A stretch of 64,000 nt of DNA from Schmidtea polychroa (taxonomy: Eukaryota), in NCBI GenBank assembly GCA_044892525.1, contig CM097886.1, forward strand, positions 16,616,001-16,680,000, in the 5' to 3' direction. A program made the position numbers and the translations under genes. The notes under the pieces are model-generated. The model saw only the letters and a program-made list of their open reading frames with translations. It did no database searches and had not been told where the DNA came from. This document shows, one piece after another, positions 3,395 through 63,931 of this stretch. The first letter of the stretch is position 1. Every line of letters starts with the position of its first letter.

Positions 3395-5446
3395 CAGTGG
3401 TGCCCAACCTAGTGCCCGCGGGCAAAAAAGTGCCCGTGGAGACTTTTTCAAATGCCCGTGGGTGTTTTTCTAAATACGGTTAAAGAAAATATCAATTTTT
3501 AACATTAAGATGTATAATGTTTCAATGAGAATTACAAGCGCATTTTTAATTTTCGAAATTAAAATTAATCAATCCCAACAATTAATTATTAAATGGGAAT
3601 TCCAAGAAAATTAAATTTTTTCCTACTTTAAATTAAAATTAATTAACTCAAATATCGTTACATCGTTAGTTAAAAAACTCTATTTAAATCAGTCAACCAA
3701 AAACAATCTCTCAGTGTGGACAACAATTTATCCAAATAAAAAAAATAATTTTTGTTTTTACAAAAATGTCTCTCAGCAAAGGGATGTCTCAAAAAAGAAA
3801 ACGTGAAGATGAAAAATCTGCGCAACAAGTGTTAAGAAATAACTGGGAAGAACAATTTTTGTTCACACATTCACAATCATCAAGGCCAATTTGTCTGATT
3901 TGTAATGACACAGTTGCAGTCTATAAAAAATACAATGTGGAACGTCATTTTAATCAGATGCATTCAGAATTCAAAATCAAATACCCAATTGGATCTTCAG
4001 ACAGAACTGACTTTATTTCAAAGAGAAAATCGAAACTTGCAGTTCAGCAAACATTTTTTACCAAAAGACAAGAAGAAATGCACGGTATGACAAAAGCTTC
4101 CTTTCAAATTTCCCTGCTGCTTGCCAGATTAAAAAAAAGTTATTCAGATGGTGAAATGGTAAAAGAGGCAATTTCTATTTTTGCTGAAAACTCAGGTGAC
4201 CCAAAAAACAAATTGCTGTCCAAAAACATAGCACTTTCAAGAAATACAGTTACTCGGAGAATTGAAGAAATGGCCAATGATGTCTCAAAACAAATTATTG
4301 TTGCTGCTTCACTTTCAAAATACTTTTCAATTGCAATTGATGAAAGCTGTGATGCAACTGACAGTGCTCAATTACTGGTTTATATAAGATGTGTCAATGA
4401 AAACTTCGATGTTGTTCAGGAACTTCTTGGCCTTTGTCAACTGAAAACCACAACAACTGGACCCAAGTACTGCAATTTTTGGAAGAAAGAAAAGAGTTGC
4501 CTACCGAGTGTGATCTTTTGAAAAACAATTCCTGGTTGAGTGAATTGGCTTTTCTTGTTGATGTCACAAATTACCTGAACATCTTGAACACAGGATTGCA
4601 AGGTGAAAATAGTTTGTTCCCAACACTATTCAATCAAATCAATGCATTTAAGGCAAAATTAAAACTGTTTTATAACAGTCTTTCTCAAGGAAATCTGGAT
4701 CTTTTCCCCACGCTTCAGAAATTTCAACTTGAAAGTTCAATCACTGTCAACTTGGACTATGAAAAATACAAACTTGCCATTATGAATTTGTCTCATTCAT
4801 TTTCTTCTCGATTTTCTGACTTTGAGGCAGAGAAGGATAACATTTTATTGTTCATTAATCCATTCTCTATATCAGAAAGTGAAATCAGCAAGTATTCTCC
4901 AAAAATACAGATGGAAATTACTGACATTCAAAACCACACAGGATTAAAGAGAAAGTTTCAAGAGCTTTGTGAATCACCTATTTCACCCGACTTAAAAGCA
5001 TTCTGGAAGCTTGTTCCAAAAAATGACTATCCTGAATTTAACAACATGGCACTCCGGTTTGTGGTCAAATTTGGATCAACTTACATTTGTGAGAAGACAT
5101 TTTCTTCAATGAACTACATAAAAAGCAAATTCAGATGTTCACTCACTGATGCTCACTTGGAAAACCTCATTCTATTATCAAATTCAAAAATCAATCCTGA
5201 TATTGATCAACTTGTTAGCCAGACTCAAATTCAAAAGCCGCATTAAAATGATGTTATAAATAAATTTGTTTGTTTTGTTTCACATTATTATTTTTATTAT
5301 TTTAAATTTTTAATACAAATGCATGTTTCCTAATAAAAAGATTGTTATAAGATCATTTTTCTATTAACTAATTTTTCAAAAATGTGCCCGCAAAGACTTC
5401 TTCATTTAAATAGTTGCCCACTTGATAAAAAGGTTGGGCACCACTG
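3395..5446 (+). mobile_element. hAT DNA transposon (SPIN/Charlie/GTF2IRD2-like), internally deleted
   Basis: Perfect 16-bp TIR cagtggtgcccaacct/aggttgggcaccactg and a perfect 8-bp TSD ctataaca (3387-3394, 5447-5454). Confidence 0.92.
3766..5246 (+). pseudogene. hAT transposase split into two frames by an internal deletion near 4460
   Basis: ORF 3766-4521 has a BED-like finger (CLIC...RHFNQMH) and FSIAIDESCD (first catalytic Asp). ORF 4434-5246 has WLSELAFLVD and the dimerisation motif (FGSTYICEKTFSSMNYIKSKFR). The DGA/CxxH/RW central region is missing. Confidence 0.85.
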
Positions 5447-10628: not shown

Positions 10629-13600
10629 ATGTCTTGTTTTTATCATGTAACTTCTCAAAAAGCAACTGGAGTTTCTCATTCGTTTACATGTATTACATAT
10701 ATGTATTAGTTTATTTTAAATTAAACTTTAGGTAATTTTACTGGCCCTAACGATTTGAATCTGATCGTGGGAAAATTTTTTTATTTTGAAATATATTTGG
10801 TTACATCAGAGGGATTACGATTGATGAGAGAACTTCCAATCAATGGCCGAATTTCAGCAGCAGTTAATTTTAAGCGAAATGTAATAAATATGATTTAGTT
10901 ATTGATACTAATTATTTATATATCTAGGGTAGGAATCTTGATTCGATTGTTGTCGTAACGGAAAAAGCGGACGCAGCAATTATCGATTGCATTCGCGAAG
11001 ACGAGAGATTAGATTTTATCACATATGCTAGTGGGAATATTGGAGATAACTCATCGATTTTATCGGATTTGAGACATGAAATAATAATTGATCCTACTAA
11101 TCAAATTATATTATTTAAATTTTTCGATGGAGTATTCAAGGCGATATTAATGAAAGATTTGAGAACACTAGATCCAAAAGACTGTGAAACGAGTCAAGCT
11201 TTGAATGTTGTTGCATTTAGAGTGGAAGATGGGAATATATTAGGGATTTTTAGTCTACACGGATCTGAGGATTATGCAACTATTGGATTGTTTGTTGAAG
11301 TTAGTTTTCGATTGCAAATTAGTGTTTTTAGCGGGTAGATTTTTTTGAATAGGATAATAAAATGTTGAATATGAAATCGTTTAAAATGTCATTTAATCAA
11401 GTTGATGTAACTCCAGATGAATGGAAAATTGACGCATTGCCACCAGATACGCAGTTCATAATCCCCGTAGAGCCACCATATTGCGGGATTTTGATCGTTG
11501 GCAACAAGAGCGTGATTTATCACAACCGAATAGGCACACAAATCCCAGCGGAAATACCGATTCATAAGGTAGTTATTGAAGGACTGCGTTTATAGTTATT
11601 AATTGGTATATTTGACAGTCGAGTACAGTTGTGTGCTATGAGAAAATAGATGTACACAAATATCTGCTCGGTGATATGATGGGTAGACTCTACATGGTAA
11701 TTCTGTTCCACGAAGGACCCGGAACGTCCAGTACGACAGTTATTCCAAACTGCCTTAAGGTATCATATCTTGGTGAGGTATGCATCCCGGAAAATATGAC
11801 CTATCTCGATAATGGTGTCGTGTTCATCGGGTCGACGCTTGGCGATTCCCAGCTAATACGCTTGACATGCAATCCATCTGACAATGACGCAACGACAGGA
11901 GCGGCCGTGTCTATCCAGGTGCTCGAACGGTACATGAATGTCGGCCCTATCATCGATATCGACTTGCAAGAAGTCAATGGGCAAAATCAATTGCTGATGT
12001 GCTCGGGCGCATATCGCGAAGGCTGTGTCAAAATTGTCAGGAACGGAATCGGGATCCAGGAGTTGCTAATCATCGATCAACCGAATATCAAGAATGTTTG
12101 GTCGCTTAAATTCCGGAATGGATGTGCCGTTGACAATTTGCTTGGCTTTTCTTGGCCCGGTCGATCCGAGTGAGACAATAATAATTATAAATTATAATTA
12201 AAATAGTAATTAATGGAAATAAAAACAATAAAAAATAAAATAATAATAAGTTATAATTATAACAAATAAAAATAAGACAAGAATATACAAGCAACCATCG
12301 AATTACAATATTAATTGGTTCTTTGTTATTCACAATTATGTTATACAAGACTTGGAATTTTTTAAATAAATTAAATATTTACAAACTATATATCAAAATT
12401 ATTTAACCATTGTTAGGAAAAAGGGAAAGGAAGTTTTATTAAAAGAATTGGGTACCGAGTTATTCGAGGGCTGTCTGTATTATTAAAAAAATATTGCAGT
12501 AACATACCATTTAATATAAATTAGCAATATGTTCATATTTCTAATGACGATATATTTATTGGTAAATCCATTTCACCAACCCCCCCCCCCCTTCCCACCC
12601 ACACATATTTTCTAATTTTTAATTCTAATCAACATTCCTTATAATATCCTTTTATCATTCTCCTTTGTTATAATGGCTCCTTTTCAGTTATATTCATTGT
12701 TGTCTTTAGCATGCATGTATTTTATTACCATATTCACCAGTGCTTCATTTTTGAAGATATTCTGGTGTTCATTATTTTTTGTCTTTCCTCTTTATGCATT
12801 CCAGTATATTCATTCAGATTCATATTATCATTCCCTGTCAACTTTCATTCTCTAAATATCTTTCTCCCATACATAATTTCAGTCGGTGTAATTGGCATAT
12901 TAAAATTTAAATTCTCATTTTTTTATTAATTATAATTATTATTATTTATTTTTATTATTATTATATCTGAAAAATAATATTTATTGTGATAAATTTGATT
13001 TGTGGATGAATCAGCCAATTATATTGTTTTTTTGTCAATGATATTTTTTCTTATGCTTAAACTACCAAAATTCCATTTGAATTTTTTATTGCATTTATTT
13101 ATTTAGTCAATCGTTGAACATAATTTTCTGTTGCATATCGATTATTACAATATATTCAGCAAAGGCTCTTATTTAATTTCCATTTTCGAATGATCAAAAT
13201 TATTTCACCAAAATCGCTTAGTCACACTGATAAATGTTTCATTAACATTTAGAACGTTCACTCTCGAAGGTGATGATTTACGACAGGAGATTTGCCTGGG
13301 ATTTGAACTGTATGCGTCGACTGTTCACCTGTCAGTCGTCGGTAATGATGACCATATGCTGCAGGTTACCGATAAAGAATTGCGCCTGATCCCGATGGTT
13401 CGTGATAACGGGGATAACGAAAATATAAATGTCTGGAGGCCACCTTCTTCATTAGGGATTTCGCGCGCTACAACGAATGGTAAGCAAATTGTGGTTGGAA
13501 GCGGCTGCGATTTGTTCTACCTGGTCGTTCTTGGTCATTCTTTATCTCTCGTCAAGTAATTATCCCGATTCTTTTTCTACCTCATACATTATTGCAGCAC

Positions 13601-16600
13601 TTGCAAACTGACCAATGAGATTTCCTGCTTGGATATGTCTCCATTTCAATGGAACTGTCCCGGTCATGATGACCCTGCCCAATCGGAAATTGTTGCAGTG
13701 ACATTCTGGATCAAGAAATCCGTTTGTTTAGTCGATCTTAAAACGATGAAAGTTGTTGCTACGGCACCGTTGACAACACCCGGTATTCTACCGCGTTCCG
13801 TTTTAATTGTCCAATTCAATCGAAATGCTGCCCCATATTTGATGATCGGCATGGACAATGGGAATTTGATTTATTTTCAAATGGATATCTCTGCTCTCGT
13901 GCAAAACAATTCATCCGGTAACCTTTGCTATTTCTTTTGAATGCCGAGATTATTTATTGATTTTATACAATTTTACTCTAAAGAAACAATTCATTACATT
14001 TGGGGTTTTAATTTACTGAGATAAGATGAAGATCAATCGATCCTCTAATTTGGCAGCCCTGGGTAAAATATTTGGTGTAATACCGAATAAAATATTTCTA
14101 AATTACGCCCAACGATTTTTCCCAACTGGAATAGTGGTGCTTATTCTAAAACTGTGCTGATTAATTAAAATAATCTCATGTGATGCATGGATGTTTTAAC
14201 CGTTTGCGGACCGAATTAATATCGTATAAGCCATTTAAGGCCAGCACTGCTCTGGCCTACCGTCCGCAAACGGTTAAAACATGATTTCGATCATATATGA
14301 AATCAAATTAATTTCTTTTTCCATTTAAATTTGTAATAAACAATTCAAAAATTGATATCCGAAAGATTTAAACTTATTTCCCGTTCGGAATGATGATTAA
14401 ATTCCTTCGGGAATGATTGACCAATCTGCTGAATTTTCAATATGATTGGAGGATTTTAATTTAATTAAAAATGGGTTGATGAGAAACTGCTGATATGTTA
14501 TTGAATCTAGAACCATTGACATGAGACAAATTAGGCGATATTTATTTACGAAAACTTTAAGAATTTTGACGTTCATGCCTCCTCATAAAGGTTAATTTAC
14601 AATACCATTAGTTATTGGATAATACCGATTATTTTTCGATAATACTGACTCCGATAGTAAGTCAAAGAATGTAAGATAATAAAAATAAATACAATGAATC
14701 ATATATTCAATAACTTTGACTTGAGATCATATTTTTGAAGTAAAGCAGCAAAAAGTAAAGTTTATCCCAAACAAGTTATAGAGGGAAAACAATATTGGAA
14801 CATTGAATTATGAAGAGGCTGCTGATTCGTGTTGTCCTTTAGGAAAGAAATTGATACAATATTTCCATAGGAATTTTAACTGAGCAACGACGCGTGACCA
14901 TCGGTACTGGTCCGTTTATGAATCTATCTCTTTGGAATTCCCTCGGTCAGTCGCACGAGAGATGCGTATTTGTATGCTCGAACCACCCGAGCATTATTCA
15001 TTACAGCGATGGCCGGCTACTTTTCTCTAGCATTAACCTGAAAAATGAAGTCTTATCAATGTGTCCTTTGAACAGTTCAACTTATAAAAACTGGTAAAAA
15101 TTTCTGTAAAAAACCTTTCAAAGAAAATAAATACTCGCTTCTTCAGCCTCGTTCTTGTCAGTGAATCGAATATTATCTTCGGTTCAATCGATAAAATCCA
15201 AAAACTTCACGTGCGTAGTGTACCTCTCAATGAGAGTCCAAGGCGCATGACTATTCAAAAGGAAACCGATTCCATAGGTCTGATAACAATGAGGTGTGAT
15301 ACCTATCACGACAACGTGTTTCGTCCTATGCGCGCGTCAGTATCGACAAATGCGAGATTGACGAAATCTTCAAGCGGTGCCCCGGAATTGATGAAAAGTT
15401 AGTATTAGAATGATTTCGTATTTCGTTTCATTATTATTATTATTATTATTATTGTTTTACGATATATTTTGACAGTATTCCTGTCATCATCAGGTAGGAT
15501 AGAATAACTATAGAAATTATAGATTTTTGAACAAATTTATTAATTATATCATTTTTTAATAAAAAATATTTTTTTTAAATTAGAAAAATTATAATTATTT
15601 TTTTATTATTATTAATATTTATTATAGTATTATTATTGATTAATTTTATTTATTAGTTATATATATTATTTTTTTTAATATTTTTATTTTCATTATTTAT
15701 TATTAATTTTAATAAATATTGTATATTTTGTTATTTATCAATATAAAATTAATATTATAATTTTTACTTTTTAGTATTTTTTATTTATAAATATTATTTT
15801 ATTATTATTTTTCCTTTAATTTTTTAAAATTTTAATAGTTATTTCTATTATAAATATTTGACTCCTTTTCTACAATAATTACTCCCTTGGTCTCCAACAA
15901 ATTATAAACACAATTTCAAAAATTTTCGGATACAGGTTTAATGAAATTTTCCGTCTCTAGAAATACTCATATAATCATTTAATTAATTTTTTAGTCCACT
16001 AAATATAGTCTTTATTTCTTGTTTTTACTCTTCCAAAGACGTGTGAAATCAGGGATATATATAAAGATAATTAAACTGTCTAACAAATAATAATAATCAC
16101 AGATTATCTTATTATTATTTTTATTTATTAGTATATGTATCAGTTTAATAATCATGATTTAGAAAAGAATATTTAAATATACAATTAATATAATGTTAAA
16201 TTTTGATTCGATTTATTTAATATTTAATCGATTCCTTAATTATTATTAGATTTAGAAACTCATAGATAAGGAAATTTGCAAAATTATCAATCATATATAT
16301 ATAAGTATATCAACATTTTTCCTTTTTGAATGTCACCCATTGATAGTTCTTGCATCGTCATTTTATCCAAAGGTTTTTTAAACCAGTTTTAATTCTTCAT
16401 AGTTGCGAAAAACTTGTGTCTACTAAAACTTGAATTTCAATTTATTCAATTAACAAATTATTTCTGATATTTTTCTTCTTAAAACATAATGCATTTCCTA
16501 GGAACATTAATTAGAAAAATGCGAGACATCGAATCGTCTCATTTAATCATCATGAATCAAACATTTATGGAACCTGTTCATTGTCATTCTTTCTATTGTT

Positions 16601-17928
16601 CCGAAGACGTGGTGGAACAGGCGATATCTATAACGACAATGAAACTGCCAATATCAATTATAAACCATGAAATCGTCCCCGATAGCCGAAATGTGACAAA
16701 TTTCTCTCTGAAACTCGAACCCCAAGACGATCCGATGTGTGGTGGTTCCAGTAACGCCGGGGAGGTAAAGCTGACCCCTGTGTACATTGTTGGAACCGCC
16801 TATGTTGTTGACGAAGAGCAAGAACCCACCCAAGGATGCCTGTATGTATTTCATTATAACGAGCGAACTGGAGAGTTCACAGTCGTGCGAACATTCAAAA
16901 CGACCGGAGTTGCTTATGACATGCAAGAATTCGATGGAAAACTTCTATCAACATTCAACAGCTCTGTTCAATTGTTGGATCTCACGAAAGATGATCTCCA
17001 CATCATATGCCGCTATGACGACAACATCATCGCTCTGTATCTCAAACGGAAGGATGATTTCATTTTGATTGGAGATCTGATGAGATCGGTTACATTGCTT
17101 AGATACAAACCGAATGTCGCGCATTTCGAAGTGGTAAGGCTAATATATTATCAATATCCATTTAGAATAGATGATATATTGTTTCAAATTCCTAGATCGC
17201 CCAGCACAGAGCACCCCATTGGACAACTGCAATCGAGATTATTGACGATGACAAATTTCTTGTGGCTGAAAATGAAATGAATATTTTCATTGTGAGTCGC
17301 GATTTTGATTTAACGCCAACCGGGGAAGGTGTAAGAAATGATTTGTCAAATATGAAGGAGGAACGATTTCGAATGTCTGAATATGCGTCAATTCATGTCG
17401 GACAGGTGATCAATAAATTCATGGCAGGTAATCACGGAAATTGGTATCAATAATCATTTTGATCGTTGCTTAGGTAACATTCTCATGCAACCGTTGCTCG
17501 ATGAGTACCGAATCAAGCTGAAAAATTCTATTCTTTATGGATCGACCACCGGCACGATTGGACAAGTGTTTGAGATTAACCAAACTCTTTATACATTTCT
17601 AAAATCTGTGGAAAGCCAAATGCAAAACATTCTCGTTCCGATCGGCAATTTTCAGCACGAAACTTGGAGGAGTTACGTGAAAATCAGACAGTGTCGGGTT
17701 GCCGAGCGATTTATTGATGGGGATTTGGTAGAGAATTTCCAAAATTTAGATATGAAAGATAAAATGAAAATAGTTCAAGATATACGCATTCCGGTAGTTG
17801 ATTAATTAGGATTTTTTATTAAATTTTTTGTTATTTAGGTCGATTTTTCTAATGAGGTTGTTGGTTTCAAGGAATGTAGTGTAGAGGATTTAACAAGAAT
17901 TATCGAAGAGTTATCACGTTTTCATTAA
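10629..17928 (+). CDS. DDB1: DNA damage-binding protein 1 (CUL4 adaptor), 13 exons
   Basis: Exons 10629-10689, 10732-10880, 10928-11299, 11353-11568, 11619-12169, 13253-13555, 13598-13917, 14871-15093, 15147-15397, 16502-17133, 17196-17427, 17474-17793 and 17839-17928 splice in frame with GT-AG introns. Motifs MSCFYHVTSQK, YLLGDMMGRL, YLDNGVVFIGSTLGDSQL, IQKLHVRSVPLNESPR, DFILIGDLMRS, FIDGDLVE and EELSRFH* match DDB1. Confidence 0.95.
14200..14273. mobile_element. 74-bp piggyBac-like miniature element in a DDB1 intron
   Basis: Perfect 12-bp TIR ccgtttgcggac/gtccgcaaacgg with TTAA on both flanks. Confidence 0.6.
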
Positions 17929-43084: not shown

Positions 43085-43380
43085 CCAACGGAAACATTAT
43101 TTTCCGACTCCCAAATCTAGATAGACGATCCAGTTGCAGCACATAGCCAATATATGTTTGACGAGAAGATAAATTTATTAATAATCTCACATATTTCTAA
43201 AGCGCATAAATGTCTTCCTTCAGATGAGTTCGATAACATTAAAGTTCCGTCCCATGATCCAGACAATGCAAATTGACCATCATTTGACATAACAACATCA
43301 CTTTCAAAGTCATCCCAAATAATCATAGATTTATCCCTTGATGAAGAAATAAAACTGTTTGGATAGATGTTAGTTGCAAT
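43085..43380 (-). pseudogene. RACK1: RACK1 fragments with internal deletions, intronless
   Basis: IATNIYPNSFISSSRDKSMIIW, SDVVMSNDGQFALSGSWDGTL and [36 protein letters not shown] match RACK1 WD1, WD2 and WD5/6. Confidence 0.88.
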
Positions 43381-43690
43381 CTTTGATTTTGAAGCAGCCA
43401 TAATCACACGACTATTCATTTTCATTGTTTCTGGTATCCATGAAATAAACGCCAAAGTACCCTGATAGTCATATAATGCATAGCAAACTTCTTTAGCATA
43501 TGTTTCGATCATGTGTAATCTGAATCTTTCATAAAGAGTACCTAATTCCCCAGTTTCTAATTGAATAGTTCTATCCTTCCCTATCCTTCTGTTTGTTGAG
43601 TCCAAAGATTACATATTGAAGTATGTGTTGTAATTTAATTTAATTAAGATATCCTTTAACTGAAGGATCACATTTAACACCTGAAGCCAT
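43381..43690 (-). pseudogene. ADF/cofilin processed fragment, from start codon, C-terminus missing
   Basis: MASGVKCDPSVKGYLN*IKLQH...YVIFGL then TIQLETGELG..YERF...CYALYDYQGTLAFISWIPETMKMNSRVIMAASK (ADF-H domain). Confidence 0.8.
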
Positions 43691-54170: not shown

Positions 54171-56873
54171 TTTCTGAGATGGTTATCCAAAATTTATTTT
54201 TTTTACTTAAATTTTATTTTATTGCCCATTTAACTTACTTACCCAAGATTCACAATGACCTACGGGTTTGCTTAAAATAGTCAATTAATTAACTAATTTA
54301 TTTGTTTTTTGGTTCTTGGCTTTTCTAGGGAACTATTTTATTTTATTTTATTTCATTAATTTTATTTCCCACCGGTTACCACTTTTTTTACCGAAAAATA
54401 TTGATTTTTACTTTCAAATTTTATATAACCATTTTAATTGATTTTAAAAAATTGTAATTTTCTATTTTATTTTACATATTTTAATTTAACGCCAGCAATT
54501 TTTAAAAAATATAAATCTCTAAATAAATATAAACAAAAGCACGATATCGTTTCAGTCTATCATCTTTAGGCTCTGAAAGTCCACAATATCGGTTATGCAA
54601 GTTGCAAGAAATTGTTTTCAGCGAAACTGAAGTGATAGCTTCTATCTTCATCATCGTCATTAATTTCCCCTCGCAGAAATTTTATTATAGGTCTGCTGGC
54701 ATGATTTTGCGTAAACAATATCTTAGGCGTATTAACTACCCATTGCGGGTTTTTACAATAAACAGCATAAGAATAAGGTCATCCACAATTCAATTGATTC
54801 ACTGAATAAATCTCAGGATTCAAAGTTTTTAGCAACTATTCTCTACTTTTTTGTCTTGACATATCTGCCTTCGACAATAAGTTATCTTTTAACCGATCAT
54901 TGTGAATACAATCGAACAATATGTTTCTTTGAAATTTAACAATTAAGAATTTCATCTAACAGCTCTTTTACTCTAAAGTAGAAACGATTGGGGGTTGCTG
55001 CAGAAATTAGTTTTTGCTCAAACGGTTACGTACCTGCTGCAGAGTGCTACACTTATTTTTTCTGGGATTTTCAATACAAAAAAGGTCCTATAGAAAAAAA
55101 GCCAGGATTTTTCTGACTATAGGGGGGGGGTCTCCATTGATCCTAAGAATTTCAAAATAAATTTCATTTCTCGCTAAAAAAGCATGAAATTTTCTAAGTA
55201 TAATTTAGGTGGGCCTCCTTGGTCCTGGGGTTTTTACATGAGGTAATTCAAGGATTTTATCAACTATAGATTTCTGTAACGTCAATATACCGATAAATGA
55301 GCTTCTTGTACTTTATTAAAGATACCCAGTTTTTTTAATCTTTCTATAGAATCTTAAGATCTCCCATCAGCTATAAATCACAAATTACAATAAGGCCTAA
55401 ATCACAGCCATTTTTCTGCTTCAAAGTTAGATTATCGAACGTTAAAATTTAAAATTAATTATTTTCGCTGCTTTTTTGTAATTGAATTGTTAGATTCGCT
55501 TTTACCATGGTCAAAATATTTAATTTTATAATTTTATGCCTAATTAAATTTTGTCTATCCTCGTCTTCCTTTCTCTGATGGATTGATACAATCCCAAGTA
55601 ACGTCCAATAATGTTACTCGTTACAGGCATTTTACACAGTTGAGGTATTTCTAACGCCTAGTGATTTTATTTTTTAAATTATGTTTCCATATATCTGAAT
55701 TGTCATCGACAACTTGTTTCGCTAACTTAAATAACATTATAAATCCTAAATTACATATTACAAACAACGATAAATATTAACAAATCATTTAATACCCTAC
55801 TTGGTCAATCCTGAGTTGGATTGACGCGTCTGTGATCATTTTGTTTCTGAATTTGGATTTCTTTTATGTACGCGCACAGATGCGAATAAGGAATGATGAA
55901 TCTTTGAGTATATTGAATTTTAATTGTCGATTCTTTGAGTTGTCGGAATTTGCTTTTGAATTTTCTGGTTATTATCGATTTTTGGATGTGATTGTTCGAA
56001 GTTTGGTTTAAAAAGGTGAATTTTTTGATTTGCATTTTTTGTAAATAAAGTTTTTCGAGATTCTATTGTGTTTTTACAAAAATTAAAAAGCGACTTGCAA
56101 CTTATAAAAAAAATGATGACTAAACGAAATTTGGATTATGAAGATTTTAACGATTGGAAAAGATCAAAGATTATTGAACATTATGATGTTTCTTGTAAGA
56201 ATGGATCTAATGGAGCTGAACTTTATGATGCATTACCTAAAAACATAATCGAAGTTCTAACTCACGATGGGAATGATAGAGTGGAGTTTGTGATGACAAT
56301 TAAACACTATTATATATTTGAAAATGACTAATTGACTATTATATTTAAAAGTATAGATAAACTAAAGGTTATTTCGTGAATATTATTATATTTTAGATGT
56401 ATATTACAAAATATATATGTAAGAATTGGAGAATATGTATTATAAAAAATATAAATATTAATGTTACATTTATGTCCTGTTCTGTATATTAGAAATAAAT
56501 GAGTGCGCGACCTTTTTATAATTTTTAAATTAAAAACCTCAAAAATGAATGATTCATACAAATGTTCATCTACTGAAAGCACAGGAAAAATGTTTTGAAA
56601 AAAAAGGGCCCAAAATCATAACTCTAGTATCCATTGACTGCATGTTCTGTGATATGACGGTGAGAAGGAATATCAACACCAGCTTTACGATATTTATCGT
56701 TCGTAATGTCCATTCAATATATTGGTGAAGCATTTCTTTGATCCCAAAATTGTTCAAACTGCAGAGTTTTGAGCACATTTTTATTGATTAAAAGATGTAA
56801 ATGTTTGAAAGAAAGAAGATATATTAGAATATTAAAACAATGTATTTTAATTTAATTAATTTAATAATGTATT

Positions 56874-57167
56874 AGTAGTGAGAATACACCCCCACTCACC
56901 CCCGACCACCCTACAAAAAGCACCTTATTTGCCCCATTAACACACAAAAAACAGCCATAAAAGCATAAAAAACGCTATTTTGGAAAAAAAAGAAAATCTA
57001 AAAAAGAACGAATATTGGGCTAAAAAAAAGGAAAAAAATTAAAAAAAAAGGATTATAAAGCAATAAATAAAAAATAAAATTATAAAGATGTTATAAGTGG
57101 AAGATGTCTTCATAATATTTAAAAAGTAAAAAAGGTCGGGGGTGAGTGGGGGTGTATTCTCACTACT
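56874..57167. repeat. 294-bp unit bounded by a perfect 34-bp inverted repeat with Polinton-like termini
   Basis: agtagtgagaatacacccccactcacccccgacc (56874-56907) and its exact reverse complement (57134-57167). Confidence 0.9.
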
Positions 57168-57247
57168 CTATGGCAGTATAATAATAAAAATAAAGCCGAA
57201 ATAATCGAAAATCGAAAATCGAAAATCGAATTTTTCACTATAAAAAA

Positions 57248-58534
57248 ATGAATTTTAAAATTCAAGAAAGAAATAAATTGAATCTTGATTACAATAAGGA
57301 ATTCACCCATGAGATTAAAAAGAATGATGTTTTAAAAATCTCTCCAACTTCAGGCTCAATAGCAAATTTAAATCGATCAGGAGACATAGTTTTTCAAAGC
57401 CTTCAAACTTCAAACCCTATAGATATTTGTAATGCAAAATTATATTACAAGATTGAACTAGAAATTGATGCCGATAAAAATATAACCCTTGAAAATAATT
57501 TCTTTCCAAACTTATTCAGCAACATGAGATTAAAACTAGGATCATCAGAAATTGAAAGCATATTATATCCGGGAGTATATTCTACAATGTTAAATTTTAT
57601 TTTAACAAGCTCTGATTATAAAAATGAATATGGAGAATTAACCGCATGGATTCCTGATACAAACAAAGGGGATGTAGACAAAGACGGCATGGATGCAAAC
57701 AATGGCTATTATAAAAGAGTTAAACTTTACAAGCTGAAAAAGTTCGAAGGTTATTTTGAATTAAAACATTTATTTGGATTCCTTCAAAACTATAATCGAG
57801 TACTTCATAATGTTTTTATAGAATTCATCTGTAATAGGGTAGAGGATGATAAAAGATTATTCTTTGGGGATAGGGATACAACGGCTAAATTAAAACTATC
57901 AACGCTTGAACTCCATATACCTGAATGGACCTTAAACCCACATTCTGAAATCCGACTGCTTGAAAGATTAAATTCCAACAGAAGTATAAACGTAAATTAT
58001 TTAAATAGAATCTGTAGTGAATTCAGCATGACCGAGGGATCAACATACTCTATAAAGGTTGCAAATCTTGCATACCGCCCAAGATATATCTTAATCGGCT
58101 TCAAAGAAATAGATTCATCATTTCAAAAAAACAACAATCTATTTATTCAAAAGATTGCTGCCGATAATTTAAAAACAATTCAAATCCAACTGAATAATTC
58201 TTATTACCCTATAAATCGAATGGAGTTTAATATTGAAAATAATGAAAACATATTCCCATACTTGAATTATATTGAAACATGTAAAGAATTCAAGGTGGAG
58301 CCACAATTAAACCTAGATGATTTTAAAAATCTATATTCCATATTTTGCATAAATGTATCAGACCAGGATGATCGCCTAGCCATAAACAATGTGGACGTCA
58401 CTCTACACATAACAAAGGATTCCAACTTTAAATCCAAGGTTTATACATTAATATTAGAAGAAAAGAAAATAGAAATGAAGTTGTATGCCGGAAAGATTTC
58501 AATCATAGAAAATGTCAGAGGAGAAGGCTCATAG
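57248..58534 (+). CDS. Double jelly-roll major capsid protein (Polinton PY / hexon-like)
   Basis: 428 aa. NLNRSGDIVF, TLENNFFPNLFSNMRLKLGSSEIESILYPG, KHLFGF, KLSTLELHIPE, RPRYILIGF and IQLNNSYYP resemble Polinton MCP motifs; context supports the call. Confidence 0.82.
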   Translation: MNFKIQERNKLNLDYNKEFTHEIKKNDVLKISPTSGSIANLNRSGDIVFQSLQTSNPIDICNAKLYYKIELEIDADKNITLENNFFPNLFSNMRLKLGSSEIESILYPGVYSTMLNFILTSSDYKNEYGELTAWIPDTNKGDVDKDGMDANNGYYKRVKLYKLKKFEGYFELKHLFGFLQNYNRVLHNVFIEFICNRVEDDKRLFFGDRDTTAKLKLSTLELHIPEWTLNPHSEIRLLERLNSNRSINVNYLNRICSEFSMTEGSTYSIKVANLAYRPRYILIGFKEIDSSFQKNNNLFIQKIAADNLKTIQIQLNNSYYPINRMEFNIENNENIFPYLNYIETCKEFKVEPQLNLDDFKNLYSIFCINVSDQDDRLAINNVDVTLHITKDSNFKSKVYTLILEEKKIEMKLYAGKISIIENVRGEGS

Positions 58535-58580
58535 TATAATATCCATAGTATAATATCCATAGTATAATATCCATACTAAA

Positions 58581-59450
58581 ATGGAATCCTGGTATTGCGA
58601 AAGCTGTAGATCTCAAGTTAGAAAAAAACACAAAGCCCGCCATCTTAAAACTAAAAAGCATATGGAACAGCCTTCGGAACACCCTTCGGAAGGAGGCGAT
58701 CTTCAAAGTTCAAGGTCTACACTTAGAATCCTCAAACCTTTTACAACTGAAAAGTATCCGGGTGAAAGACATTTATTCCGCCATAACTATACTGGCCCAG
58801 GAACTCGATTGGATATTCGCCTTGATGAAAATAATAATCCTAAGCCCGGAGAAGAACCAATAAACAGAGTTGATGCCTCTGCACTTTCTCATGACATAGC
58901 CTATAACTCTGAAAACCTTAGAGATCGACATCTTGCGGATATAAATCTGATCCACGATTTAAATGCCATAGAAAATCCAAGCACGGGAGAAAAGATCCAA
59001 AGAGCCCTAGTTAAATTAGCCATGAAGGCCAAGATCTTTGTTGGCGGAGAAGTAGAAGCACCTCGTTCTGCTCTTCTAGGCCTTATTCATATGCCTTGTA
59101 AATCTATAGAAGGAAATAAAATAATTCTAGTGCTTATTGATCTGGAGTCCCGAGATGTATTTCTTAAGGCTATAAAAAATAAAGACTCTACACAGCTGCT
59201 CGAAGGTCTTGAGGGCCTATTCGAATCAAATCAAATAATCCCAAGTTATCTGCACACAGATGAAAACATAGAATTCCCGGATCTTGTAATAAAACCTATA
59301 GGTTGTGTAGACAGGAAAATTATTAAGGAAGAAATAAAAAAAATAAAAAATATTTTTTGGAATCACTTTAGTTCTAAAAGAAATCAAATATGGTCCTCAT
59401 CGTTTATATCAGAGCCTATACCAGAGTCTACATCACTCTCTATAACATAG
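58581..59450 (+). CDS. Zn-finger + parvovirus-type phospholipase A2 + degenerate rve-integrase-like domain fusion
   Basis: WYCESC...RHLKTKKH (C2H2-like); HNYTGPG and DASALSHDIAY (PLA2); C-terminal GNKIILVLIDLESR..LKAIKNK...IPSYLHTDENIEF...IKNIFWNHF (INT-like). Confidence 0.75.
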   Translation: MESWYCESCRSQVRKKHKARHLKTKKHMEQPSEHPSEGGDLQSSRSTLRILKPFTTEKYPGERHLFRHNYTGPGTRLDIRLDENNNPKPGEEPINRVDASALSHDIAYNSENLRDRHLADINLIHDLNAIENPSTGEKIQRALVKLAMKAKIFVGGEVEAPRSALLGLIHMPCKSIEGNKIILVLIDLESRDVFLKAIKNKDSTQLLEGLEGLFESNQIIPSYLHTDENIEFPDLVIKPIGCVDRKIIKEEIKKIKNIFWNHFSSKRNQIWSSSFISEPIPESTSLSIT

Positions 59451-59556
59451 TCCCCTTGGACATAGTCCCCTTGAACAGAAGCAGAGTCTATAATAAAGTG
59501 TGCATACAAACTAGAGCCATCAAAAATTTCAGTTCTCATTTTTATGGATTATAATT

Positions 59557-60360
59557 TTACTGCACTAGGTTTGTGTACACAGCCGAATTATCCCGATCTA
59601 GAAATATATAGCTATGTTTTTTATTCCAATGATGATCCATGTCCATGTCAAACCTAACCTTATCAGGCATCACTGTTGAAAATAAGTCTGTGTAAATCAA
59701 TGCCCTATCTCTTTTATCCAATTTAAAAAAGATAAAGCAATTAGCATTATTCCTTATGGAGTGCTTATCCAAAGCATAATAGGTTTGTGAAATATAAATC
59801 GTATTGCAATTACTATGGCGACCTCTTAAAAAATATGTCTTTTGAATATTTTGATTTTTCATATTGACAACATCATCAAATACAACCAGATGCTTCTTAT
59901 TCTTGGGAAGATCGTCACAGTACATAATATCCTCAGGTCTATTTGAAAATAAAACATCAATCTTTCCCTCTGAAGAATCTTCACAGAGGCCCTTCCTTGT
60001 TCCACGCTCCTCTGCTTCTGCAATCCACCAATCAATAATATCCTGAGGGCTTTGAACTTCTGCAGGCACTTGGTCTTGATTTTTAAAAATATCAATCAGT
60101 GTTTTTTTACTTAGATTATTCTCAAAGCCATATTTTAAAAGCTGAAGTTCCGGCTGCCCTATGGTCGTGGAATAAATGATTAAGTTATTATAGTCCAGGA
60201 ATCCTTGCTCAAGCAGCATTTTTAAAAGAAGAACGTTCTTTCCACAGCCCGAAGGTCCTATAATCAACAATCTAAAGCTACTGGGGAATATTTTATGATT
60301 AAAAATAACCTTATTCCGAGTTAAGATGGGTTCCCAGGATTTAGAATTTTCTCTATTCAT
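59557..60360 (-). CDS. A32/FtsK-HerA-type genome packaging ATPase
   Basis: RLLIIGPSGCGK (Walker A), LVVFDD (Walker B), RGRHSNCNTIYISQ (Arg finger/sensor) and IRNNAN. Confidence 0.9.
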   Translation of the reverse strand: MNRENSKSWEPILTRNKVIFNHKIFPSSFRLLIIGPSGCGKNVLLLKMLLEQGFLDYNNLIIYSTTIGQPELQLLKYGFENNLSKKTLIDIFKNQDQVPAEVQSPQDIIDWWIAEAEERGTRKGLCEDSSEGKIDVLFSNRPEDIMYCDDLPKNKKHLVVFDDVVNMKNQNIQKTYFLRGRHSNCNTIYISQTYYALDKHSIRNNANCFIFFKLDKRDRALIYTDLFSTVMPDKVRFDMDMDHHWNKKHSYIFLDRDNSAVYTNLVQ

Positions 60361-60375
60361 TTTTTAATCTTAAAA

Positions 60376-60906
60376 ATGGTCGACACTGAGGAATATTTAG
60401 AAGAATTAATAAAATCGAATAAAAGCAAATCTGTGGTCATCGATGGCAAGAAGTATTTTATTGGAAAGCAAGTAAGGCAAAGAGTAGAAGAAGAAAAGAG
60501 GAAAGGAGGCTTTCTACCCCTGGCAGCCTTAATACCTGCAATCATCGCGGGCCTAACCACAGTCTCCGGGGCAGCCGCAGGAGTTGCAAAGACCGTGAGC
60601 AATGCAAGAGAGGCAAGAAACAAAGACCTTGAAAAACAAAAACTAGAACTTGAGATTGCAAACCTAAAGAAGAGCGATAGTGGGACGGCAGTAGGCAAAG
60701 AGGGCACTGCTCAGGGCACTGCGTTATACCTCGATCCCTATAAAGGCCGAGGGCTAAATGATTTTTTAAAAAATCAAATTTTACAGTCCGTGGAGCTATC
60801 TTCAAAGGATAAAGAGCGTCTAAGAAGAATGTCTAAAAATTTAAAGAACGGATGTCTTTGTGAAATAACAGGTGAAGGTTTATATTTAAAACCTTGGAAT
60901 TTATAA
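60376..60906 (+). CDS. Adenovirus pX-like internal/core protein
   Basis: KGGFLPLAALIPAIIAGL..SGAAAGVA resembles the adenovirus pX hydrophobic segment; LYLDPYKGRGL and GEGLYLKP are Gly-rich motifs. Confidence 0.55.
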   Translation: MVDTEEYLEELIKSNKSKSVVIDGKKYFIGKQVRQRVEEEKRKGGFLPLAALIPAIIAGLTTVSGAAAGVAKTVSNAREARNKDLEKQKLELEIANLKKSDSGTAVGKEGTAQGTALYLDPYKGRGLNDFLKNQILQSVELSSKDKERLRRMSKNLKNGCLCEITGEGLYLKPWNL

Positions 60907-60913
60907 TATAAAA

Positions 60914-61828
60914 ATGGTACTCGAAGAAAGATTAGAGCTTTTAAAAAAATTACATAGTGAACAGGATAAATATAATAAAAAAACCATAAATCTAAACACC
61001 GAGTCCTTGGTCTTGCATGATGAGTTAAGCAAGCAACAAGAACCGACTATTAAAGCCATAGAAAAAATGCATGCCAAGTATTATGATGAAGAGGATCCTA
61101 GCCTCGGGGATAACACCCTCGGACTTGAAGGTCTAGAGCCTTTTATATTTAATCCTGAAATTAATAAAAGAGGCTTAAGTGTTACAACAACTCCAACATT
61201 TAGACATAATCCAAATAATGGATTTCAAATACTAACACTTAATAATCATAACTTTATACTATACGCCCAGAATGCTATGGCATATCTCAGATCTCAGAAT
61301 GTTTATAGCCATCAATATATAACCTTTGAATTTACATATAATTTTTCAGAATTACTTTGTGGGCGCATACCAGTGGAGACTACACTTGATGAATGCGAGA
61401 GTTATATGAGGTTAATAGAGGTCGTACAAGCATCCCACATTGCCCCACATATTACGAATCTAAGAAAATTTATAAACCTTAAATTTTATGAGAACAGAAG
61501 TCTAATAGAAAATTTAAGCGATAAAGAATTAACCGATAGATATACCCAGAAGGTTTTGGAGAACCTCTCAACCTCTGCTATTGAGGCAGTTCGTTCTGGA
61601 ACGAAGCCCGAAGAAGAAGAAGAAGAAGAAACTACCCCTGAAACACACAGTGAGTTCTTCGGTGAAGGCATAAGGAATAGTATAAATTTTTTTATTGAGT
61701 TAAGAAAACTTTTATCTGCAAGGAAAGCAGGACATAATAATTTAGATTCTGATATTTTAAAGATCTCAAAGGAATTATTATCCAGAGCTTTGCTTTCAAA
61801 GCAAAAGTATAAGAAGTACAAGAATTAA
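60914..61828 (+). CDS. Conserved Polinton-type hypothetical protein
   Basis: 304-aa open ORF. LSKQQEPTIKAI at the N-terminus and GEG...LRKLLSARKAGHNN...ISKELL at the C-terminus recall a recurrent Polinton ORF. Confidence 0.55.
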   Translation: MVLEERLELLKKLHSEQDKYNKKTINLNTESLVLHDELSKQQEPTIKAIEKMHAKYYDEEDPSLGDNTLGLEGLEPFIFNPEINKRGLSVTTTPTFRHNPNNGFQILTLNNHNFILYAQNAMAYLRSQNVYSHQYITFEFTYNFSELLCGRIPVETTLDECESYMRLIEVVQASHIAPHITNLRKFINLKFYENRSLIENLSDKELTDRYTQKVLENLSTSAIEAVRSGTKPEEEEEEETTPETHSEFFGEGIRNSINFFIELRKLLSARKAGHNNLDSDILKISKELLSRALLSKQKYKKYKN

Positions 61829-61839
61829 CACTATAATAA

Positions 61840-62259
61840 ATGAATCCCAGTATCCTAGATTTCTTGAAAACCTTTGGAATAAAATCAAAAACAAACTTTG
61901 ACCTAAAGGATCATGCAAGGCTGTTAAATCTAGATCTTAAAATACTAATGAATGATGAGCTTGAGGGAACTAAAAAATCAAACATAATAATAAACTATCA
62001 AAACTCGGATAAAAAAGGCTCACACTGGGTCTGCCTTAGGGATAGAAGATTTTATTTTGATTCATATGGCATTAAGCCCACAAAGGAAGTCGAGCAGTAT
62101 ATGCTTCCAGATTATATTTTTAATTCTCTACAGCTCCAACCTTGGAACACTGAAATATGTGGAGTTCTATGCCTATATGTTCTCTACTGCTTGAATCAAG
62201 GCCATGGGTTTAAATCCGTGATAGATGAAATCCATAGGGGTTTAAAATCTATGTTATAA
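61840..62259 (+). CDS. Adenain/Ulp1-like cysteine maturation protease
   Basis: GSHWVC (His), YFDSYG (Asp) and QLQ...ICGVLC (Gln, Cys). Confidence 0.88.
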   Translation: MNPSILDFLKTFGIKSKTNFDLKDHARLLNLDLKILMNDELEGTKKSNIIINYQNSDKKGSHWVCLRDRRFYFDSYGIKPTKEVEQYMLPDYIFNSLQLQPWNTEICGVLCLYVLYCLNQGHGFKSVIDEIHRGLKSML

Positions 62260-62262
62260 GAA

Positions 62263-62949
62263 ATGGCGGATAAATATTCTAGAACTTTATTAATAAATTC
62301 AAATGAATCAGATTTTAGTATAAACTTTGAAGACAGCATTATTTTAGAACAGGATTTAAGTTATGAACTAGGACTCCTGTGGTTTTCATGCTTTAATACC
62401 ATTTTTAATATAAGCAATAAGAATAATAAATTTAAGATCGCGGGAGTTCCTTGTTCCATAGAGCCAGGAGCCTATGAACTAATTGATTTAGGAAAAGCAA
62501 TTTTAAAGCAAACAAATAATAATCTTGAAATAAAAGCAGATCTTCAAACTTCAAAATGTATTCTAACTTTAAAAAAGAATATTAAACTTGAATTCTCAGA
62601 GTCTAGTTTCTTTCATAGTATTTTTGGCTTCGAAGTCAAAGAATATATAGGAGAAAGCTTTAGATCTAAAAATATTATTCAAATTACAAATACAAATTCC
62701 ATAAACATTGAATGTGACTGCATTATGGGTTCTTACAATAATGGCAAGCATTCCAAGATCCTATATTCCTTTCCTTCTAACACCGTTAGGGTTGGATATA
62801 AAATAATCGAAAGAATGAATCCTCCAAACTATTTACCCATATGCAGGAAGAACCTGATGAGCATTCATTTTAGAATTGTGGATGAAGATGGAAATCTAAT
62901 AAACTTTAATGGTGAAAAGATTACAATGTATTTACACCTGAAGCATTAG
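62263..62949 (+). CDS. Minor capsid (penton-like, single jelly-roll) protein
   Basis: IEPGAYEL, INIECDCIMGSYNNG..SKILYSF, GYKIIE and IHFRIVDEDGNLINFNGEKI..LHL match the Polinton mCP pattern; follows the protease gene. Confidence 0.8.
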   Translation: MADKYSRTLLINSNESDFSINFEDSIILEQDLSYELGLLWFSCFNTIFNISNKNNKFKIAGVPCSIEPGAYELIDLGKAILKQTNNNLEIKADLQTSKCILTLKKNIKLEFSESSFFHSIFGFEVKEYIGESFRSKNIIQITNTNSINIECDCIMGSYNNGKHSKILYSFPSNTVRVGYKIIERMNPPNYLPICRKNLMSIHFRIVDEDGNLINFNGEKITMYLHLKH

Positions 62950-62998: not shown

Positions 62999-63931
62999 AT
63001 GGCTTGTAATAAATTTGGTTTATACAATGATGGTTTAAAAGATGAAGATGTTATAATGCTTACAGAAAAAAGATTTGTTAATGAGAGGGGTGACAGCATG
63101 AAAGGAGATTTATTTTTAAATAGTCACAAGATAAAAGAATTAGGCCCTCCAACCGATAATCTTGACGCTGTTAATAAAGCATACCTCGAGAGCTATGTGA
63201 ATTACTATGTGCATTCCTATATGCGGCCCCTTCTGCGTTCCTATACACTTACATTTCTGAGTGACTATATGCCTGAGTATGTGACCTCCTATATGAATTC
63301 CTATATGCCTATGCATATAAACCGTCCTATCGATAATTTGGCTACAAGGCTTTTAAATTTAGAAACCCGTTGTTGTTGCATTGATACTTCTCAGGCCTGG
63401 AGGGTTAGAGCAGCGGAACTGAAAGAAAATAAATTGCTATCAGTAATGGAGTACAAACATTTTTTAAAGGTAGATTCTTTAATTGTCGAAGGTAAAGATT
63501 GGTCGTGTTATATGGTTGTTAAAATCATTGACCCTTATTTCTATTTATTCATAGATGGTTCTAACACCATGACATGGTTTGCAAAATCTGTGTATAATAC
63601 TAAATTAAAAAAAGGAGATGTTATAGTTACTGATTACAATCATTCTAAAGGTCTCTGGCATAATGGCATTAATACTGGACGCCCTTACAAAGTATTAAAT
63701 ACAACTATTGCTCTTGCAAAGACACAAGTAGAATACATTGATATAATATATTATAATAAAAACATTAATCAAGACACATATTATACACTATGCAATTTAT
63801 ATAGAGATGTATTAACAAAAGTAACTGAGTATGACATGCGAGTAATATTACACAGCCATGATTCTCCTAAACATTCAATGATATTATCCCAATTTAGAGA
63901 CTCTAAAAATCTGAAGCCTCTAAAACTCTAG
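62999..63931 (+). CDS. Putative fibre/receptor-binding protein
   Basis: N-terminal NKFG and a GDSMKGDLFLNSHKIKELGPP..NLDAVNKAY fibre-shaft-like repeat, followed by a beta-rich C-terminal domain; located next to the penton gene. Confidence 0.5.
   Translation: MACNKFGLYNDGLKDEDVIMLTEKRFVNERGDSMKGDLFLNSHKIKELGPPTDNLDAVNKAYLESYVNYYVHSYMRPLLRSYTLTFLSDYMPEYVTSYMNSYMPMHINRPIDNLATRLLNLETRCCCIDTSQAWRVRAAELKENKLLSVMEYKHFLKVDSLIVEGKDWSCYMVVKIIDPYFYLFIDGSNTMTWFAKSVYNTKLKKGDVIVTDYNHSKGLWHNGINTGRPYKVLNTTIALAKTQVEYIDIIYYNKNINQDTYYTLCNLYRDVLTKVTEYDMRVILHSHDSPKHSMILSQFRDSKNLKPLKL

Follow-up and report, generated by a model that had tools for sequence, protein, structure and literature searches.

The 64,000-nucleotide stretch of Schmidtea polychroa DNA analyzed here (the window) carries part of an integrase-defective derivative of a Polinton family, and one of its frames joins a zinc finger and a parvovirus-type phospholipase A2 (PLA2) to a pseudoenzyme derived from the retroviral-type integrase (rve) family. 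The dead integrase core, or stub, is under purifying selection and is not simply decaying. Our leading reading, to which we give a probability of roughly 0.45, is that the stub works as a core subunit without catalysis of its own, at the genome ends and in concert with the integrase of a helper element. The features of the frame are as follows.

58581..59450, + strand: zinc finger-PLA2-dead integrase core frame, open, 289 aa; sole integrase locus of the element
58596..58664, + strand: C2H2-type zinc finger pattern C6-x2-C9-x12-H22-x5-H28, read off the sequence
58692..58697, + strand: Gly-Gly 5' of the PLA2 (at 29 of 30 loci), a predicted protease site
58698..59036, + strand: parvovirus-type PLA2 domain (PF08398) with YTGPG loop and HD pair
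59037..59048, + strand: FVGG (residues 153-156), predicted protease site 3' of the PLA2
59070..59393, + strand: trimmed integrase core, full D-D-E triad absent (dN/dS 0.25-0.30)

Pfam placed the PLA2 at residues 64-145 (PF08398, E 2.1e-8, above the cut-off), and with YTGPG at residues 70-74 and HD at residues 104-105 the motif set of YxGxG calcium loop and HD pair is complete, in agreement with a first-pass annotation of this DNA that had described the PLA2 as intact; phospholipase activity is predicted from these motifs. The zinc finger region gave weak Pfam matches only (E 0.047 and 0.51). The integrase-like core matched PF00665 over residues 169-232 at E 0.0015, below the cut-off. Replacement of the first catalytic Asp by Gly, proposed in the same annotation, was found at Gly167 (59079-59081), and the second Asp is retained as D227, followed by the shortened D2-to-E segment that had also been proposed. 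The third catalytic position reads as Glu in MAFFT with a one-residue gap and as Lys by hhalign and helix register. The integrase has in addition lost ~45-60 aa from its N-terminus and ~90-110 aa from its C-terminus, which the first-pass annotation had not recorded.

The assignment of the C-terminal part to a catalytically incomplete retroviral-type integrase core was upheld independently of the weak Pfam match, since the dead-core profile matched the intact sister integrases with a profile-profile probability of 99.0 (E 6e-18) and a profile built from the ten dead cores alone retrieved 80 matches among 1.84 billion proteins, 18 of the top 20 scanned being rve proteins. The corresponding fold was likewise recovered, as a core model with pLDDT 84, built on an alignment rich in intact integrases (13 of 19 rows), matched PFV integrase in Foldseek (E 1.5e-5) and ASV integrase with Z 13.8 and rmsd 2.4 over 124 residues. 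Its closest structural matches were the PFV, ASV/RSV and MMTV integrase cores, and retention of an RNase H-like core fold is predicted by this model; a model from the ten dead rows alone had a mean pLDDT of 43, with the PLA2 part low as well. A PDB sequence search with the window core gave no match, and the structural matches listed for the core model included no Polinton intasome. Modelling of a complex between the window core and a fragment of an intact sister integrase, run without alignments, scored 0.00 and provides no evidence either way.

The whole insertion runs from window position 56874 to G000:C2:16687350 (14,477 bp), and its remaining features are listed below.

56868..56873, no strand: target-site duplication TGTATT, left copy, 6 bp; its right counterpart follows G000:C2:16687350 (L031:8350), beyond the window
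56874..58123, + strand: left terminal inverted repeat, ~1.25 kb, starting AGTAGTG; 98.4% over 1292 aligned bases against the other end
57134..57167, - strand: inverted internal copy of the terminal 34 bp, present in other dead and intact copies
57248..58534, + strand: double jelly-roll capsid gene (PF21738, E 1.3e-25)
59557..60360, - strand: A32-type packaging ATPase, 267 aa (PF04665, E 3.1e-7)
60376..60906, + strand: protein-X-like core protein with GG-FLPL, in its own frame apart from the PLA2 (PF05829, E 0.0013, below the cut-off)
60914..61828, + strand: 304-aa conserved frame, no family match, in the dead and intact copies examined
61840..62259, + strand: adenain/C5-type cysteine protease, 139 aa; carries His, Asp, Gln and Cys motifs and matches Peptidase_C5 clusters by Atlas features (0.96-0.97)
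62263..62949, + strand: probable minor capsid (penton) protein, 228 aa, no Pfam match, kept in all ten dead copies
62999..63931, + strand: 310-aa conserved frame, no family match, in the dead and intact copies examined
L031:2657-7054, outside the window after the 310-aa frame, - strand: protein-primed family B polymerase (PF03175, E 4.6e-10 in L031:2657-6043)

Both the capsid and the ATPase matches lie above the cut-off; the cysteine protease had no match in Pfam or PDB sequence searches, and the 228-aa frame is presumed to be a minor capsid (penton) protein from its size and position. Terminal inverted repeats starting with AGT and a 6-bp target duplication are hallmarks of Polintons. The element has both, together with the polymerase, capsid, ATPase and cysteine protease, and lacks the intact retrovirus-like integrase. 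It is filed as integrase-defective because neither a full triad nor a separate integrase occurs in any of the ten dead elements found in this genome.

Several other properties of the element were observed. Its right end carries, at L031:7058-8101 (minus strand), an inverted copy of the first 289 capsid codons (57248-58123), with the protein 99.7% alike, and the inverted ends of the other nine dead copies are far shorter and hold no capsid codons. The terminal 27-35 bp (56874-56907 and 57134-57167 at the left end of the window copy) are repeated in inverted orientation ~230-300 bp inside each end in most dead and several intact copies; the internal repeats are absent elsewhere, and could fold back during replication. 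Three tandem 17-bp TATAA-containing units (58533-58578) precede the PLA2 frame, and the start codons of four genes (capsid, 304-aa frame, protease and minor capsid) have TATAA-like boxes just 5' of them. The polymerase of the window copy has one premature stop that is absent from the 10 compared copies; programmed read-through was rejected, the stop being private to the window copy (1 of 11 compared). Polymerase modules have been swapped among close copies (L063-L068), and three copies whose polymerases are 94%, 75% and 61-66% identical to the window polymerase match the window element at mostly 85-98% in their capsid-side genes.

The 781-Mb assembly is AT-rich, and the window also holds intron-split genes. 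Outside the element, frames on the host side may correspond to a broken hAT-type transposase at 3688-5246 (+), to exons of a DDB1-like gene at 10928-17805 (+) and to a WD40 (RACK1-like) fragment at 43117-43608 (-).

The short, dead form was found at the same ten places in each of three genome searches, in which 150 candidates each, of 2359, 2437 and 2469, were scored, with counts that are lower bounds; intact-type places numbered at least 140 per search. All ten dead copies lack the region from the Gly site to the core and all sequence beyond the helix after the core, and the integrase N- and C-terminal DNA-binding regions are missing in every one. None retains the full D-D-E triad. The first Asp was lost in four copies (to Gly, the window copy among them) and the second Asp in six, and aligners disagree on the third position, which comes out as Glu or Lys, or in one copy as Asp. 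That the frame is a local deletion or assembly artefact was rejected, in keeping with the first-pass view of a genuine fusion: the ten copies lie on five contigs, form one clade and show purifying selection. In a second sample of the same study, contigs cover 30 of 30 bins of 58400-60400. One RNA run gave no cover over the core, which does not count as evidence on expression.

A separate, catalytically intact integrase, which the first-pass annotation expected the element to encode, was found in none of the ten dead elements (tblastn, E<=1e-5, 20-22 kb each), and the 13 other frames scanned of the window element gave no other integrase-type Pfam match. Thus, a working integrase can come only from other copies. 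Perfect 6-bp duplications nevertheless flank seven of the nine elements examined, or seven of the eight with both ends, which together with the missing triad and integrase points to insertion in trans. The inverted ends of the dead copies are 90-100% alike and start with AGTAGTG, as do those of intact copies, and the dead elements were likely inserted by the integrase of abundant intact relatives with matching ends.

The ten dead cores form one clade (99/99) on long branches out of the intact integrase of the same genome; long-branch attraction may draw the most divergent dead core into this clade. One copy carries an intact-type PLA2 before its dead core (AU p 0.008) and gene trees conflict across the element, which together indicate that dead and intact genomes meet and recombine. 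Dead core DNA matches its nearest copy at 70-98%. Outside this genome, none of the 28 public proteins and 52 metagenome loci inspected showed the dead form, a search with the dead-core profile yielded nothing at E<=1e-10, and no relative turned up in scans of viral contigs. Two contigs from the DNA run of another study match 59082-59161 at 82-86%, where dead cores range over 70-99% and intact ones over 62-73%; this is a weak hint that their sequence is nearer the dead than the intact form.

A derived origin of the fusion, implied in the first-pass annotation, was not borne out, since intact zinc finger-PLA2-integrase frames are the norm of the family. A genome search gave 148 matches among 135 of 3761 candidates scored. 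Of 20 sister loci inspected further down the list than the top ten, 12 carry a single uninterrupted frame, 456-485 aa long, with zinc finger, PLA2 and full integrase with D, D and E, so that here no stop or frameshift parts the PLA2 from an intact integrase; the remaining eight hold the same fused gene broken through stops or frameshifts. The same domain order, whose wider occurrence had been raised as a question, was thus found in sisters and also in public homologues, 20 of 51 of which match both PF08398 and PF00665. A complete fused frame with the triad occurs at 8 of 52 metagenome loci, and an Atlas cluster of 67 members has been automatically named 'Phospholipase A2-like/Integrase core domain-containing protein'. 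Because intact frames are this widespread, PLA2 and integrase were joined while the integrase was alive; judging from these sequences, the fusion is older, and catalytic death and trimming came later.

At another 8 of the 52 metagenome loci, the PLA2 frame ends within a few residues of the Gly site, and at the one such PLA2-only locus inspected the integrase begins directly after it as a separate gene. On a 6.3-kb metagenome contig (L150), PLA2 and an intact integrase adjoin each other as two genes; beside them the contig holds a 1162-aa frame bearing a helicase-like motif, and it lacks a capsid gene. In the S. polychroa genome, two intact-type copies stand in tandem at L091-L092 (G000:C3:49673501-49693500), the first without a polymerase end.

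Evidence that the dead core is still constrained was provided by codon analyses. Core dN/dS was 0.25 over the ten dead copies, 0.29 among the four without the first Asp (p ~0.003) and 0.30 among five without the second (p ~2.5e-8), under a single-ratio codon model in which p values are approximate because topology and kappa were fixed in the null. Branches within these subgroups postdate the loss, and the constraint is therefore not carried over from the active enzyme. Intact cores gave 0.03 (n=9, one of ten comparators being left out for a frame broken upstream of the core, and all being chosen from search lists and not randomly). Among the dead copies the PLA2 has a dN/dS of 0.07, PLA2 values overall spanning 0.06-0.09, and minor capsid and ATPase genes in the same subgroups fall at 0.23-0.28. 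A shifted-frame control ranged from 0.6 to 8.3 and the antisense frame sharing third positions from 0.41 to 0.64; the constraint signal is frame-specific.

The core is open in all ten copies at 106-129 aa, with many in-frame insertions and deletions. On a nine-copy tree, ~31 nonsense changes would be expected in the core under neutrality and none is present; within the subgroup of the window alone, 2.2 are expected and the absence is not significant (P 0.11). The 26 columns invariant in all ten dead cores sit in strands 1-3, the next helix and the basic helix with the Glu position. Elsewhere in the dead copies, 19 of 99 gene-by-copy cells were flagged as broken by tblastn, some perhaps through alignment artefacts, and the zinc-finger end of the frame is lost or split in two copies. 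The PLA2-only frames that end at the Gly site indicate that the stub could have been dropped.

The first-pass annotation also described an adenain-like VGG site at the domain boundary. A Gly-type site does part the PLA2 from the core, F-x-G-G or F-x-G-x-G standing 3' of the PLA2 at 25 of 30 loci and in all ten dead copies, with the downstream Gly missing at five loci, all intact-type. VGG proper is confined to four of the ten dead copies, where Phe at P4 falls outside the consensus. A further Gly-Gly ahead of the PLA2, which that annotation did not mention, is better conserved than the downstream site. The adenovirus protease consensus is given as (M/I/L)XGG-X or (M/I/L)XGX-G with relaxed P4 use in the available text of PMC4246237; here the Gly pattern fits, P4 is Phe at the downstream site and P4 is variable at the upstream one. 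Since the P4 requirement is known to be relaxed, cleavage at the predicted sites is plausible.

Under the core-subunit reading, the zinc finger-PLA2-core polyprotein would be packaged in the particle and the protease of the element would cut it at the Gly sites. The PLA2 would breach membranes at entry, a role of such lipases that has been argued by analogy with parvoviruses (PMC4642659, available text). Insertion would require full-length integrase from a co-resident copy, as has been proposed in trans for integrated polinton-like elements that are integrase-less (PMC4642659 and PMC11296320, available text). The freed core may then take the structural 'outer subunit' places in a mixed integration complex. 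This step is the most speculative and borrows from the foamy virus intasome, where core-only outer subunits support integration and their flanking domains are dispensable (PMC6333793, available text). We favour this reading because strands 1-3, the next helix and the basic helix have been kept while catalysis and flanks have been lost, in the likeness of those outer subunits; from the analogy, end binding and pairing with an intact integrase are, speculatively, predicted for the core.

Other observations speak against a core subunit. In retroviral integrases, the helix that follows the conserved Trp contributes to the surface through which cores dimerize. This helix is shortened in the dead cores, most in the subgroup of the window, pLDDT falls below 50 beyond model residue 118, and the stretch past the second Asp has been deleted or scrambled. 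Ten dead against at least 140 intact-type places are also not what efficient hijacking predicts, and integrase-less elements insert in trans without any stub (PMC11296320, available text). A more specific version, that the stub is a core-only adaptor which is packaged with the PLA2, freed by the protease, fills a hybrid complex and recruits a co-resident full-length integrase to its own ends, is possible but to our minds rather unlikely. If true, two viral genomes would naturally share the parts of one intasome, and the lineage would be a surviving intermediate between integrating Polintons and the non-integrating, adenovirus-like viruses that arose from them.

A close rival to the core-subunit reading is a role in the virion core, in which the stub would serve as a packaging tag, or as a DNA-condensing or end-capping protein, of a mostly free virus that is occasionally inserted by a helper. 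The position of the gene between capsid and ATPase in the structural cluster, purifying selection on the capsid, protease, PLA2 and ATPase of the dead lineage, and the small number and divergence of the dead copies all agree with it. The dN/dS of the stub equals that of the minor virion genes, its basic helix outlasted the catalytic and flanking parts, and an inactivated domain is retained structurally in the adenovirus vOTU (PMC11161782, available text). Such a role is held back by the PLA2-only relatives, which indicate that an integrase tail is not generally required for PLA2 delivery, and we consider it tentative, at well under even odds.

It is improbable, in our judgment, that the stub is a jobless relic, under constraint only because misfolding of the tail would damage the PLA2 to which it is fused, or the transcript. 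A dN/dS tenfold that of the intact core, the many in-frame length changes and the different catalytic residues lost by the subgroups are what a relic would leave behind. A single stop at the Gly site, however, would lift such a burden, and frames of this kind occur in nature; no stop arose on the tree on which ~31 were expected, and the invariant columns also argue against passive persistence.

We rate as slightly less probable still an antagonist that poisons or tempers the integrase complexes of the intact family in a dominant-negative manner, favouring the dead lineage in co-infected cells. Its fold without catalytic residues or either flanking domain, and a core that evolves fast yet under constraint away from a nearly invariant intact integrase, would suit this function, but the dead elements themselves depend on a working integrase for insertion and the intact family is still very abundant. 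Residual activity through substitute acidic residues is very improbable: although 6-bp duplications flank the elements, each copy retains one or two of the three acidic positions and an invariant Asp lies nearby in strand 2, none of the copies has the triad, from which the two subgroups have lost different residues; intact integrases have the strand-2 Asp as well, in addition to their triad; and the flanking N- and C-terminal regions, which hold DNA in retroviral intasomes, are missing.

The zinc finger-PLA2-integrase polyprotein of the family, with its Gly sites, leads to the prediction that integrase is carried in the particle and freed by the maturation protease, which would give an immediate, testable account of how an incoming Polinton obtains its integrase. 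The sub-lineage that lost catalysis, kept its core under selection and is still inserted provides a natural dead-versus-live pair from one genome, with which roles of the integrase core beyond DNA cutting, and the way in which integrating viruses abandon integration, can be probed.

No description of a PLA2-integrase fusion, or of Polintons with a dead integrase core, emerged from our literature search; the intact fusion may appear in supplements, Repbase or subscription journals. As the intact architecture stands in databases under automatic names, it is undescribed at most, not unseen. Animal Polintons/Mavericks described as alpha adintoviruses (Starrett et al. 2021, PMC8502044, available text) have in common with the window element the capsid, ATPase, adenain-type protease, protein-primed polymerase, parvovirus-type PLA2, protein-X-like protein, inverted ends and target duplication. 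In those viruses the PLA2 is joined to protein X (PLA2X) and the integrase is its own gene, whereas in the window element the PLA2 is joined to the integrase and the protein-X-like match lies in a separate frame (60376-60906). The Ca-loop and HD motifs of the window PLA2 are shared with parvovirus VP1 (PF08398) and the Sf-Maverick CAP, whose PLA2 domains are capsid-tethered or free-standing, in contrast to the integrase-tethered one here; CAP and INT of Sf-Mavericks are given as separate frames (all PMC5803895, available text).

Integrase-less polinton-like elements (PMC4642659 and PMC11296320, available text) resemble the window element in being inserted without an encoded working integrase. 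They have no integrase gene, while the window element keeps a trimmed core under selection and is otherwise complete. The outer subunits of the foamy virus intasome (PMC6333793) are, like the stub, non-catalytic cores with dispensable N- and C-terminal domains. They are the same full-length protein as the catalytic ones, and the available text of that paper does not mention a core-only subunit encoded apart in a different genome; the likeness would be an analogy of mechanism, not of membership. Closest of all are the intact frames of the family (in the same genome, in public proteins P0002-P0043 and in the Atlas cluster), which share domain order, Gly sites and the capsid-ATPase position. They are 430-485 aa long, with D-D-E, both flanking regions and a dN/dS of 0.03, and by their sequence they represent the direct ancestor of the stub.
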